Sequence record: NZ_CP081674.1 | Strand: one strand, 5' to 3' | DNA from: a plasmid | DNA length: 64,000 bases | In this document: positions 19,711 to 31,320 of the stretch, piece by piece | Layout of the letters: each line of letters begins with the position of its first letter | Numbering within the stretch: the first letter of the stretch is position 1 | Notes under the pieces: generated by a model | The model's input: the letters and a program-made list of their open reading frames with translations, nothing else | Told to the model about the DNA's origin: nothing | Database searches by the model: none | Position numbers and translations under genes: made by a program

Positions 19711-19730
19711 TTGACCGACCAGTCGGTCAA
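19711..19730. promoter_or_regulatory. palindromic operator TTGACCGAC-CA-GTCGGTCAA upstream of the DUF962-tetR operon
   Basis: 9-bp inverted arms. Near-identical copies at 30212..30230 and 31302..31320. Confidence 0.55.
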
Positions 19731-20149
19731 TAGAGTTTTCGTATCGTCGTGCCTATGAGGCGAGCACCGCGCGGTGAACAAAGTCCTCGATCAGATCTGC
19801 GATCATCGTCGCGCCGCGAGTGTTCTGATGGATGAAATCGGCGGTGAGGACGAGGCCTCGGCTCCGGCCGATGCTGTCATAGGAACGACGCAGAATCCGG
19901 TGCTGGAGGACTGAGGTGTACCGATATCTCTAGGTGGTGCAAAGGTATCCACGACATACACGACGACTGCTGGTTCGGAGCGCAAGCGCCTGTCGTGAAC
20001 GAGTTATCTACAGCTGATCCGTGACGACGGCGGCCTGCGTCATTGGTGCGCGCCAGCGAGGATGCGAAGTACTCGCCGTTGTCGACGCCGACTGGGTCAA
20101 CGATCACATTCGACGGCTCCACGAGGGCGAGGCAATGTAACCAGAGCGA

Positions 20150-20491
20150 TCAGGTCTGGACGTTCTCCGAGGCCGCCGCGCTGCTCGGCGTGGTCAGGCC
20201 GAGCTCGTGAGCACGTTGCCAGGCTGCGGCTAGATTGGCTGCCCGGCTGTCGGCGGACACCTCGCACAGGAACTGGCTGCATTCTTTCTTGTTGATCTGC
20301 CACCGTAGTTCGGCGTATAGACGCAGGTAGCGGCGTCGGAGGATCACTCGCCCGAGGGCACCGCAGTCCTGGATGACGCGACAAGCTCGACCACCTGCGG
20401 CCTGGTCTTGTTCGAGTGCTTGGGATTGTTTGGTCCAGTAGGGGTGGACCCGCCACTGGGTGTCGCGGACGGGAGTCTTGTTCCAGCCCAC
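20150..20491 (-). CDS. hypothetical protein (113 aa) downstream of the ImmA/IrrE regulator
   Basis: ORF with protein-like composition. A degraded second copy of this DNA lies at ~33950..34200. Confidence 0.4.
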   Translation of the reverse strand: MGWNKTPVRDTQWRVHPYWTKQSQALEQDQAAGGRACRVIQDCGALGRVILRRRYLRLYAELRWQINKKECSQFLCEVSADSRAANLAAAWQRAHELGLTTPSSAAASENVQT

Positions 20492-20509
20492 GTTCGAACC
20501 TCGGCGTCT

Positions 20510-21607
20510 TTACACCATGGTGAGGTGTCGGGTGACGGGTTGATCGCTGGCGGTGCGAAATAGGTCAGCGCGTTGTGTGCTTGTGAGCAGGGTGATTTCG
20601 TCGAGTTCGGCGTTGGTGTATCCGGCCGCCAGGAGTTGTTCGAGCACTGAGCTGGTGAGTTTGGGTTGTTCGGCGGCGACGCCGGCCCGGTTCCCGTACA
20701 TGCGGCCGGTCTCGTTGAGTAGCCGGAACATGGATCGGTACTGATAGTCGGAGAGGATGCCGCGTTCGCGGGCACGCATGACCAGTGACGACACGCTCAC
20801 ACCCCAGGTCAGGCGCAGCTCGTCGAGTTCGTGGACGGTGCGAATGGAGACCCGGTCCAGGTCGAACGCGATGTCATCGATGGGCGCCAGGAATTCGGCG
20901 GCGAAGGCGGTGGCTCGGCGTTCGGTCTCTGTTGGGCTGACCAGGGTCATCGCGTCCATCACGAGGTGGCCGAGTTCGTGGGCGAGGGTCATCCGCATGC
21001 GGTCGGGAGGCAGGGCTGCGTTGACGTACACCAGATGCGGATGGTGCTGGTTTGCCCGCAGGGTTACGGCGTCGATCTCGCGGTCGGCGAAGTCTTCGAG
21101 GATAACGAAAACTCCTGCGGCTTCCAGTAATTCGGCCATGGAACGGATCGGGCCGGCCACCCGCCAGAGGCGCCGCAGTACCTGCGCGGCGGTGATTTCG
21201 CCGTGCTCGGCGGCGTAGTCAGCGGGGTCGAGTTCGGGGAGCGCGAGCAGAGGTTCGATGTCCGCACGCGCTTCGATGCGCCCGAGCCGCATCGCGATGA
21301 GGTTCGCTCGCGCCCACACGCGGTCACGTTTCCACTCCGCGGTGCTGGCATTGGCGCGGAAGTGGGTGCCTTCGGCCGGCGACCGGGTGAACGGGACGCA
21401 CAACGCCTCGGGTGGGCACTGCAGGACTCGCGCGTAATCGAGCAGGGCTTTCCCGGCCAGAGGCAGGACACCGGATTCGACCTTGCTTACGTGTGACGCC
21501 GATACACCGACCTGGTCGGCCAACTTCTTCTTCGACCATCCGCAGGCGAGTCTGGTCAGCTGCACCATCACGTTGTTCGCCTCAGCGTAGGGCTCCGGTG
21601 CCGTCAC
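20510..21607 (-). CDS. XRE-HTH and ImmA/IrrE family metallopeptidase fusion regulator
   Basis: N-terminal HTH (KKKLADQVGVSASHVSKVESG) and an HEXXH zinc motif (LAHELGHLVMD). Confidence 0.8.
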   Translation of the reverse strand: MTAPEPYAEANNVMVQLTRLACGWSKKKLADQVGVSASHVSKVESGVLPLAGKALLDYARVLQCPPEALCVPFTRSPAEGTHFRANASTAEWKRDRVWARANLIAMRLGRIEARADIEPLLALPELDPADYAAEHGEITAAQVLRRLWRVAGPIRSMAELLEAAGVFVILEDFADREIDAVTLRANQHHPHLVYVNAALPPDRMRMTLAHELGHLVMDAMTLVSPTETERRATAFAAEFLAPIDDIAFDLDRVSIRTVHELDELRLTWGVSVSSLVMRARERGILSDYQYRSMFRLLNETGRMYGNRAGVAAEQPKLTSSVLEQLLAAGYTNAELDEITLLTSTQRADLFRTASDQPVTRHLTMV

Positions 21608-21875
21608 AGATCAACTCCCCATCCGTCTCGGTGCTCGTGTCTGGACACTAACCCTCCGTCGAGCCGGAGCTCTGCAGAAACACCGTGTGATCTGCGTCTT
21701 TCTCGATTCTGTGGCTGTCCGGCCTGCGACAAGAGTGGCTGGTGTGACTCAGAACTCACCGTAGCGGTGATCTCGCCACCGATATGCACGTGTGCTGGTA
21801 CGGCGTGGCGCACGCGACAAACCTTACCACGGTCAGCACGATTCTGGGCAAGATTTTCAATCGAAAGGTGCAGTC

Positions 21876-22604
21876 GTGACGGCGCTCTTTGAGGATTCCG
21901 AGCCGCGGGACCGCGCGGTGTCGCGTAAGGAGGCGACCCGCTTGCTGCGGCAGGTCACTACCGGGGTCGCAGCGCTGCTCCTTGCCGCTGTCGATGACTG
22001 GAATGCCCTGTCCGAGCGGCACGCTGCGCACCTGCGCACCGAGTTGCACGGGCTGCTCCGGGGTTCGCATGTCGCCGGTCTCACTGCGGCAAGCACTGCG
22101 GTGTGGCTGGGCACGCAGGGCATGCACCCGCCTGGTCATATCGTGTCGAAACCGCATCGGTGGCCGATGATCAGCAGCCACGGCAAGACCTACATGGCCA
22201 TCCACCACTACGAGATGGAACCGACCAATGCGCGACGCACCGCGTTCTGCAACCAGGACTCCGAAACCTTGCGGCTCATCGATGCCGAAACCTCGTCTCT
22301 GATAGGCAATCCCACGCATTGCGAATTGACGTGGGACTACGACCCTTACACCGATGCGCACATCCGCCGGATCTGGGTCAGCGCCCCCAGCGTCGACTGG
22401 GCCAGATTCGAAGTTCCCATGGCCAAAGCCCAAGCCCAGCTCGCGTCCTGGCGCAAGCGCAAGATGAAGTGGCTGCCAGGAGAGCTGCCCGCCGACATGC
22501 ACGCGGTGGCACCGTTGCCGGCCCGCGACGCACAGGAGCGCCTCCAGCCAGGCATCGAGATTCAGCCGCCGCAGCGCTCGAAGGACGCCGGGGACGCCCA
22601 GTGA
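21876..22604 (+). CDS. hypothetical protein upstream of the recombinase trio
   Basis: GTG start with gaaagg RBS. The stop overlaps the tnpA-like GTG (GTGA). Confidence 0.45.
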   Translation: MTALFEDSEPRDRAVSRKEATRLLRQVTTGVAALLLAAVDDWNALSERHAAHLRTELHGLLRGSHVAGLTAASTAVWLGTQGMHPPGHIVSKPHRWPMISSHGKTYMAIHHYEMEPTNARRTAFCNQDSETLRLIDAETSSLIGNPTHCELTWDYDPYTDAHIRRIWVSAPSVDWARFEVPMAKAQAQLASWRKRKMKWLPGELPADMHAVAPLPARDAQERLQPGIEIQPPQRSKDAGDAQ

Positions 22605-30107: not shown

Positions 30108-30211
30108 CGCCGGCGTCCTTCCTTGTCGAGGTTGGTCTGAACCGCGGCAGTGCGTCGGGACGGCTCATACACATCAGCGGTCGACGATGCCACTGGGGTA
30201 CATTAAACTTA

Positions 30212-30230
30212 TGACCGACCAGTCGGTCAA
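30212..30230. promoter_or_regulatory. operator-like palindrome TGACCGACCAGTCGGTCAA upstream of the Ag85 gene
   Basis: Identical core to 19711..19730. Confidence 0.5.
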
Positions 30231-30260
30231 TCAAATCGTTCCAATACGGATGAGGCGACC

Positions 30261-31256
30261 ATGAACAGATTTGTCGTGAAGTTGTGGGGATTGTCGCGCC
30301 GCCTGGCAGTCGCAGCCACCGCAGGGGGAGCCCTGCTCGGATTGTTGGGAGTGTTTGCAGAAGTGCCTACGGCGCAGGCATTTTCGCGACCAGGTCTTCC
30401 GGTGGAGTATCTGGATGTGCCCTCGCCGTCGATGGGGCGAGACATCCGGATTCAGTTTCAGTACGGAGGGCCGCATGCGGTCTATCTGCTCGACGGATTG
30501 CGGGCACAGGACGACTTCAACGGATGGGACATCAACACCGAGGCGTTCGACTGGTACGACGGATCCGGGTTGTCACTGATCATGCCGGTCGGCGGGCAGT
30601 CGAGTTTCTATGCCGATTGGTACCAGCCCGCCAAGGGCAAGGCCGGAATCTTCACTTACAAGTGGGAGACCTTCCTGACCGCGGAGCTGCCGGCCTGGCT
30701 TCAGGCCAACAGGGCAGTGTCGGCCACCGGCCACGCTGTGGTGGGCCTTTCGATGGCGGGGTCGTCCTCCCTGAATCTGGCGATCTGGCACCCCGACCAA
30801 TTCGTCTACGCAGCCTCGCTTTCCGGTGCGCTGAATCCCTCGGAGGGCTGGTGGCCAACGCTGATCGGTATCGCCATGGGAGATGCCGGGGGCTTCAGCC
30901 CCTCGGGCATGTGGGGATCCTCCAGTGACCCGGCCTGGCAACGCAACGACCCGTATGTCAATGTCGACAAGCTGGTGGCCAACAACACCCGCATCTGGAT
31001 CTACTCCGGTGCGGGCGTTCCCTCGGACTTCGACGCCGGTACCAGCGGGGGGAATCTTGCTGCCGCCAAGTTTCTCGAAGGCTTCCTGGGCCGCACGAGC
31101 AAAAGTTTCCAAGAGCACTATCTTGGCGCCGGCGGCAAGAACGGAGTGTTCAACTTTCCGACCAGCGGCACCCACAGTTGGGCCTATTGGGGCCTGCAAC
31201 TCCAACAGATGAAGCCCGACGTGCAACGCGTCCTGGGTGCTACCCCGGCCGCATAG
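30261..31256 (+). CDS. antigen 85 family mycolyltransferase (fibronectin-binding protein Fbp)
   Basis: [35 protein letters not shown] nucleophile elbow, and conserved blocks alignable with Ag85A/B/C. Signal peptide present. Lacks the Cys pair of FbpA/B ([11 protein letters not shown]). Confidence 0.9.
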
Positions 31257-31301
31257 ACCCGTTCCTTGCGCTCAAATGGAGCGGCTTGTAGCGTCATATA
31301 T

Positions 31302-31320
31302 GTGACCGACCGGCCGGTCA
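31302..31320. promoter_or_regulatory. operator-like palindrome TGACCGACCGGCCGGTCAA upstream of the alpha/beta hydrolase gene
   Basis: 17 of 19 positions match the other two copies. Confidence 0.45.

Follow-up and report, generated by a model that had tools for sequence, protein, structure and literature searches.

The palindromes and the genes beside them

The 64-kb window analysed here, that is, the whole stretch of Mycolicibacterium farcinogenes plasmid DNA presented above, contains three near-identical palindromes with the core TGACCGAC-NN-GTCGGTCA. They precede a gene pair that includes a TetR-family regulator, a gene for an antigen-85-type (Ag85) protein and the gene of an alpha/beta hydrolase (ABH). 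We evaluate them as candidate operators of that regulator. The sites and the genes of the cluster are the following (aa, amino acids; ORF, open reading frame; DLH, dienelactone-hydrolase-like).

18613-19206, minus strand: TetR-family regulator, 197-aa ORF (database annotation: start ATG 19176, 187 aa)
19233-19670, minus strand: Mpo1-like (DUF962) protein, Pfam PF06127 (E 3.3e-15), first gene of the Mpo1-tetR operon
19711-19730: candidate operator 1, TTGACCGACCAGTCGGTCAA, exact 20-mer
29265-30107, minus strand: DLH gene, Pfam DLH (E 1.8e-5), divergent from the Ag85 paralog
30211-30230: candidate operator 2, ATGACCGACCAGTCGGTCAA, 19/20 identical to site 1 with a single end mismatch
30261-31256, plus strand: secreted Ag85-type mycolyltransferase paralog (putative), Pfam Esterase PF00756 (E 2.6e-58)
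31302-31321: candidate operator 3, GTGACCGACCGGCCGGTCAA, three differences over 20 bp, upstream of the ABH gene
31346-32173, plus strand: ABH, Pfam Abhydrolase_1 and Abhydrolase_6

The initial annotation had reported three copies at these places, the third with two substitutions, and window scans confirm the three places. Three matches to the 20-mer with up to 3 mismatches were seen in the window, with 0.01 expected from dinucleotide shuffles, and the degenerate core TGACCGNCNNGNCGGTCA retrieves exactly the same three sites (0.06 expected by chance). When up to 4 mismatches in the 16 arm positions were permitted, the three sites had 0 or 1 mismatches and all others in the window had at least 3. 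Site 2 has the same 18-bp core as site 1. The core of site 3 deviates twice, by one change in the central dinucleotide and by a T-to-C exchange in the right arm. The palindrome as a whole is a nested (GACC)2(GGTC)2 repeat. A site at 5528 with 3 mismatches was regarded as a chance match, since its core is broken and it overlaps with a stop codon.

All three sites are close to genes, at 40, 30, and 24 bp (sites 1, 2, and 3) from the first start codon of the respective ORF. Site 1 is 40 bp before the Mpo1-like start codon. Site 2 lies between the divergent DLH and Ag85 genes (103 bp from the DLH ATG, 30 bp from the Ag85 ATG) and thus also fronts the DLH gene, a partner which the initial annotation did not list. 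The true start of ABH is probably ATG 31373, which is preceded by AAGGAG, rather than the first ATG at 31346, because the closest related contig (L248, see below) has a stop codon in the stretch orthologous to 31346-31372. The distance from site 3 is then 51 bp. The Ag85 and ABH genes are 90 bp apart.

The regulator is 100% identical to a TetR/AcrR protein of M. farcinogenes and matches Pfam TetR_N (PF00440) with E 1.4e-10 (41.2 bits, cut-off 24). Its AlphaFold model (pLDDT 89.5, pTM 0.80) has the all-helical, two-domain, 9-helix TetR fold, and the top Foldseek matches are TetR regulators throughout, the nearest being Rv0078/EthR2, FasR, and FadR-type proteins. No close solved relative was found among PDB sequences, where the matches cover mostly the helix-turn-helix (HTH) region (best E about 1e-8), and no NCBIfam equivalog was hit at its cut-off. 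PDB sequence searches gave no match for the Mpo1-like and DLH-like proteins; for ABH they gave generic esterase and MCP-hydrolase relatives only.

An ancestral cluster split by an 8.6-kb insertion

The closest related DNA that was retrieved is a metagenome contig, L248. Its proteins are 91% (TetR), 89% (Ag85), 86% (DLH), 84% (ABH), and 81% (Mpo1) identical to those of the window, with DLH at the same position. The genes of L248 are contiguous: TetR, Mpo1, a site, GDSL lipase, and DLH follow each other in one orientation, and beyond a second site come Ag85 and, after a third site, ABH in the other. L248 thus carries all three palindromes; the counterpart of site 1 is at 1872-1889, and the variant form of site 3, including its T-to-C exchange, recurs identically in L248 (at 5535) and in M. 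palauense L256 (at 9005).

In the window, the corresponding GDSL-lipase gene is interrupted. By BLASTn, L248 779-2088 corresponds to window positions 18612-19923 and L248 2087-2647 to 28548-29108. The intact 245-aa GDSL protein of L248 aligns by tBLASTn to two separate pieces, which flank a synteny break.

19756-19923, minus strand: GDSL-lipase C-terminal fragment, 87.5% identity to residues 186-241 of the L248 protein (tBLASTn)
19924-28547: inserted 8.6-kb element, delimited by the synteny break versus L248
28499-29110, minus strand: ORF of the GDSL-lipase N-terminal part (gene fragment 28535-29104), Pfam Lipase_GDSL_2, 78% identity to residues 1-190 of the L248 protein; the end of the ORF is inserted sequence

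Judged from these alignments, this is a mobile element inserted within the GDSL-lipase gene, and we place it outside the putative regulon. Because L248 is contiguous and the GDSL gene is split here, the three sites can be traced to a single ancestral cluster of about 4.3 kb. The proposal that the sites link the tetR operon, the Ag85 gene, and a hydrolase gene is supported by the comparative data, with the correction that these are not separate loci.

The element contains an XRE/M78 gene, two tyrosine recombinases together with a DUF6262 gene, a 489-aa protein without a Pfam match, and a tRNA-Ala (28403-28474). The two tyrosine recombinases and the DUF6262 gene form a Tn554-like trio. Direct repeats of att type were sought at the ends of the element, and none were found.

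Between Ag85 and the third site, L248 carries an extra gene for a 200-aa protein (4615-5217, minus strand; no Pfam match) which the window lacks.

The palindromes show complete conservation when aligned with L248, within intergenic regions that are otherwise 74-83% identical (the proteins are 78-91% identical). In its own intergenic region, each palindrome ranks as the longest invariant block or as one of the longest; in the case of site 2, its 19 nt are the longest fully conserved block.

Association of the palindrome with orthologues of the TetR

We compared the genomic contexts of TetR orthologues (50-91% identity) from 10 independent loci, with about 184 kb of flanking sequence. At eight of them (L121, L122, L124, L127, L248, L251, L256, and L257), a core site with up to 2 mismatches is found in the promoter region, and in a ninth (L125) the inner 14 bp are preserved. 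Elsewhere in the about 184 kb, sites with up to 2 mismatches occur just twice, once before a second ABH gene. Overall, orthologues spanning 44-91% identity in Mycobacterium, Nocardia, and Nonomuraea stand beside the same palindrome. The three palindromes of the window, which are improbable by chance, conserved, and promoter-proximal, are strictly associated with orthologues of this one TetR.

The TetR is also physically linked with ABH, the Mpo1-like protein, and a specific Ag85 clade. ABH is the most constant partner of TetR regulators of the window type and the operator-like site, and it is also at the site in L122, L124, L127, L251, L256, and L257. The Mpo1-TetR pair is conserved in L121, L122, L124, L248, L251, and L256, and 20 or more metagenome loci have it as well. 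In M. paraterrae (L122) and M. eburneum (L124), the site separates ABH from Mpo1-TetR. In Mycobacterium sp. OTB74 (L121), one site precedes Mpo1-TetR and another precedes an ABH gene at a distance of 10 kb. In Nocardia aurantia (L257), the interval from ABH to TetR contains two degenerate sites in tandem (7884-7924), TCGCCGACCGATCGGTCA and TGACCGATCGGTCGGTTA, which are 23 bp apart from start to start; this suggests that the number of operators varies between lineages.

Orthologues of the Ag85 paralog (77-90% identity) occur in the TetR locus in five further gene orders. In three of the five, they are co-directional with tetR in what are apparent operons. In L125, the sequence ATACCGACCGGTCGGTCT is followed by Ag85-TetR-DLH-luciferase-like-ABH. 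L127 and L150 have ABH on one side of the site and TetR-Ag85 on the other, and Mycobacterium sp. NBC_00419 (L251) and M. palauense (L256) have TetR-Mpo1 on one side and ABH-Ag85 on the other. The gene order in M. hippocampi (L252) is Ag85-TetR-DUF5671.

Two further searches started from the motif. The first covered one genome per species with the degenerate 18-mer TGACCGACNNGYCGGTCA, and the 120 matches listed are mostly from unrelated phyla. Four of these 120 loci encode a homologue of the window TetR (44-52% identity), and the palindrome is directly upstream in four of four. In three Nocardia genomes (L041, L061, and L085), the tetR gene is divergent from that of a secreted class-2 lipase; in Nonomuraea (L079), the palindrome is followed first by an ABH orthologue (48% identity) and then by TetR.

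A perfect palindrome in a Mycobacterium metagenome-assembled genome (L059, 4887-4904) was rejected as a coding coincidence: it falls within the coding sequence of an Fpg/Nei glycosylase and there specifies the conserved residues LTDQSV. This copy illustrates that coding sequence can yield false positives for this motif.

The second search scanned metagenomes with the perfect 20-mer TTGACCGACYRGTCGGTCAA. Among the matches listed, 120 contigs were evaluated, and 51 of them have orthologues of ABH, the Mpo1-like protein, or TetR directly at the site. These comprise 49 with an ABH orthologue. They are distributed as follows (number of the 120 listed contigs).

ABH, Mpo1, and TetR at the site: 20
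ABH and TetR: 14
ABH only: 7
ABH and Mpo1: 7
TetR only: 2
ABH, TetR, and Ag85: 1

Seven contigs with a GC content of 0.52-0.56 (L132, L143, L175, L177, L183, L204, and L212) have the palindrome 23 bp upstream of the gene for a conserved 68-aa protein. This protein has two CxxC pairs (MRCPRCNGLMVDDWFQDIRDDTGRINFEGLRCLICGEVVDP...) and does not match any Pfam family; on its side of the palindrome, no TetR can be seen.

Position of the palindrome relative to promoter elements

Promoter geometry was assessed for 41 unique metagenome sites, oriented with ABH on the right. The arm distal to Mpo1-TetR reads TTGACC on the strand of these genes, and TANNNT follows exactly 17 nt on at 28 of the 41 sites and 18 nt on at 5 more. 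On the opposite strand, TANNNT ends on the first T of the palindrome, again at 28/41 sites. Directly after the palindrome on the ABH side come the ribosome-binding site GAAAGGA and then the ABH start codon. From the TTGACC/TANNNT spacing and the opposite-strand TANNNT, we infer that a single operator serves two back-to-back promoters: toward Mpo1-tetR it would contribute the -35 element together with the spacer, and toward ABH it would cover the start-site region.

In the window, site 1 shows TTGACC-18 nt-TAAGGT on the minus strand toward Mpo1. At site 2, TACATT is found 6 nt upstream in the Ag85 direction (TATATT in L248), and the DLH direction has TTGACC-19 nt-TAATGT. A strict sigma-70 and terminator scan near site 1 gave only an unrelated plus-strand match.

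The Ag85 paralog

Family membership suggests that the Ag85 paralog is a mycolyltransferase. Compared to the Mycobacterium tuberculosis proteins, E-values range from 1e-126 to 1e-137 over Ag85A, Ag85C, and Ag85B, with 2.3e-137 for Ag85A (1sfr) and about 1e-133 for Ag85C. The motifs GLSMAG, FLEG, and GTHSW are kept and align with the corresponding segments of Ag85A and Ag85C. Based on published Ag85 structures, we take these motifs to hold the Ser-Glu-His catalytic triad. An N-terminal signal peptide ending in AQA can be read from the translated ORF; the alignment of the mature part with the Ag85A chain begins at residue 1 of the latter.

While the paralog shares the Ser/Glu/His motifs and a signal peptide with canonical antigen 85 (M. 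tuberculosis Ag85A, B, and C), it differs by a 5-residue insertion before FLEG. The genomic setting differs as well. The canonical fbpA/fbpD genes sit by aftB, fadD32, and pks13, whereas the paralog is outside of the cell-wall biosynthesis locus. Unlike canonical fbp, the clade of the paralog (77-90% identity) is in the TetR locus in every orthologue locus retrieved, and it is preceded by the palindrome or transcribed downstream of it. As a control we used the canonical cell-wall locus, represented by the locus of a homologue group with 72% identity (glfT2-...-aftB-fbp-fbp-fbp-cutinase-fadD32-pks13), which has no site with up to 3 mismatches in 13 kb. These sequence comparisons define a distinct Ag85A-like clade, present in many environmental and rapidly growing mycobacteria and tied to one TetR locus.

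Antigen 85 enzymes, which build the mycomembrane, serve as targets of drugs and vaccines, and the regulation of their genes is only patchily understood. No native TetR acting on an Ag85 gene turned up in the literature library that was searched, which yielded reviews and papers on the Tet system only. The link of a dedicated repressor to an Ag85A-like paralog appears to be unreported, although TetR repressor-operator regulons themselves are known. The TetR-Ag85 locus is a testable case of inducible mycolyltransferase expression, and its inducer would hint at the physiological role of the enzyme.

An operator sequence shared with PaaR and other TetR subfamilies

The inner 14 bp of the palindrome correspond to an operator that has been characterized in another system. 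In Burkholderia cenocepacia, the inverted repeat ACCGACCGGTCGGT is found in the paaA, paaH, and paaZ promoters and is experimentally required for negative control by the TetR-type regulator PaaR (BCAL0210) (Hamlin et al. 2009, PMC2770484). Relative to ACCGACCGGTCGGT, sites 1 and 2 deviate in the central dinucleotide alone, and many orthologous sites match it exactly; the 14-bp operator core of the PaaR system is identical to the inner part of the palindrome. As in the window, the repeat of the PaaR system is within the core promoter, between -35 and -10, and is present in several copies per regulon. The two systems differ in their genes. PaaR governs phenylacetate catabolism, while the partners in the window cluster are ABH, the Mpo1-like protein, and the Ag85 paralog; no paa genes were found at the three window sites or in any orthologous locus retrieved.

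Among the metagenome matches listed, the remaining 69 of the 120 contigs have the same 20-mer beside other TetR subfamilies and paa-like genes, which code for enoyl-CoA hydratase, hexapeptide (PaaY-like), Peripla_BP_6, or TctC proteins (e.g., L140, L145, L161, and L206). The PaaR-like TetRs next to these palindromes show 20-34% identity to the window TetR over the HTH only (the comparison is with these metagenome proteins). One operator sequence thus seems to be reused across TetR subfamilies and phyla. As far as can be judged from sequence, this use by other subfamilies is independent evidence that the palindrome is a TetR binding site. Such reuse of ACCGACCGGTCGGT by unrelated TetRs matters for motif-based regulon prediction and for biosensor design. 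A full-text literature search for the motif as a string returned primer noise only, and longer strings had zero matches.

The best structural matches of the window TetR (TM about 0.7-0.78) include FasR, Rv0078/EthR2, KstR, and Rv0302. These are actinobacterial, share the 9-helix TetR fold, and regulate lipid and envelope genes; they have only 18-23% sequence identity to it, and their operators and regulons differ. FasR, EthR2, KstR, and Rv0302 bind hydrophobic or acyl-CoA ligands.

Interpretation and alternative explanations

We consider it likely (with a probability of roughly 0.8) that the three palindromes are operators of the TetR encoded at 18613-19206, which would govern the split cluster of hydrolase and lipid-enzyme genes. 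That this regulator controls all three sites had already been proposed in the initial annotation, and the searches that started from the motif, those that started from the protein, and the linkage to Ag85 all argue for it. Several observations weigh against this assignment. The operator sequence is common to unrelated TetR subfamilies, and another TetR of the genome could also bind it. The apparent Ag85-TetR operon of M. hippocampi (L252) is preceded by a degenerate half-site only. A strict sigma-70 consensus scan detected no promoter at sites 2 and 3, and no TANNNT -10 element could be placed at site 3. For this site, the possible targets are a weak promoter or read-through that originates at the Ag85 promoter. 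Structure comparison returned generic TetR neighbours only and does not narrow the ligand class, which makes the ligand a guess.

The first of these points leads to the alternative that the palindromes are operators which are bound in vivo by another genome-encoded TetR, for instance a PaaR-like one, while the local TetR has another target or shares the sites. The identity of the inner 14 bp to the B. cenocepacia PaaR operator speaks for it, as do the 69 of 120 listed metagenome contigs where the 20-mer accompanies TetRs that resemble the window protein over the HTH only. However, the palindrome tracks orthologues of the window TetR through Mycobacterium, Nocardia, and Nonomuraea whatever the neighbours are, and the cluster is devoid of paa genes. 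In addition, the palindrome is placed directly upstream of the TetR's own operon, and within the TetR family a site in this position is the usual signature of a cognate operator. We thus regard this alternative as unlikely.

Explanations that do without a bound repressor fare worse. Sites 1 and 2 can form a 7-9-bp RNA hairpin and a mobile element lies between them, so that one might think of hairpins or attenuators in 5'-untranslated regions, or of copies of a dispersed repeat or a recombination site. Against this stand folds that are unexceptional (z -1.0 to -1.65), a hairpin missing from the minimum-energy fold of site 3, and the lack of both a T tail and an Rfam match. The -35 hexamer within the motif, at a fixed 17 nt from the -10 element, points to a constraint at the DNA level. 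The flanks of the three copies are unrelated to one another, which argues that the palindrome is not a dispersed repeat unit, and L248 has all three sites without the insertion. The RNA-element reading was rejected on account of the folds, the missing Rfam match, and the fixed -35/-10 geometry, and we regard this whole group of explanations as very improbable. A likeness by chance, or by local duplication without function, has nothing in its favour beyond the high G+C content of the genome. With a shuffle expectation of 0.01-0.06, and with sites that many species retain in the same place with respect to orthologous genes, it is contradicted by the cross-species data; it was rejected and is practically negligible.

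If the TetR at 18613-19206 is the cognate regulator, it would repress its own Mpo1-like/tetR operon, the divergent pair formed by DLH (formerly together with the now disrupted GDSL lipase) and the secreted Ag85A-like paralog, and ABH. In the Mpo1-tetR direction, the TTGACC arm would serve as the -35 hexamer, and the rest of the palindrome would fill the 17-18-nt spacer. For transcription the other way, a TANNNT -10 element would abut the operator, which would then cover the start-site region. Because the operator overlaps the core promoters, a bound TetR dimer would block RNA polymerase both ways; binding of two dimers is considered because of the nested (GACC)2(GGTC)2 repeat. DNA binding and repression by the window TetR, as well as its response to a ligand, are what we infer from the arrangement of sites and genes, with ligand responsiveness assumed by analogy to the behaviour of the TetR family.

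Release of the TetR would be brought about by a small molecule, plausibly lipid or ester-derived. This kind of inducer is a speculation prompted by the enzyme set, which consists of esterases/lipases, a mycolyltransferase, and a homologue of Mpo1-type fatty-acid dioxygenases, and by the Nocardia orthologues that are paired with a secreted lipase. Taken further, the module might be a ligand-inducible switch for envelope and lipid remodelling in which a lipid-sensing TetR induces an accessory secreted mycolyltransferase, esterases, and an Mpo1-like dioxygenase. We put this forward as a tentative and rather doubtful idea. Candidate signals would be fatty acids of hydroxy or branched type, acyl esters, or derivatives of mycolate. 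If true, environmental mycobacteria could rebuild the mycomembrane, or scavenge mycolate or ester lipids of foreign origin, when needed, and the TetR would be the first repressor that is dedicated to an Ag85-family enzyme and responds to a small molecule.

A second TetR gene next to the cluster

A second TetR gene (32416-32990, minus strand) is convergent with ABH. It is unrelated to the operator-linked TetR and absent from L248. The reading frame differs between its HTH part (32684-32959) and its C-terminal part (32416-32613), and this frameshifted gene is probably a pseudogene.

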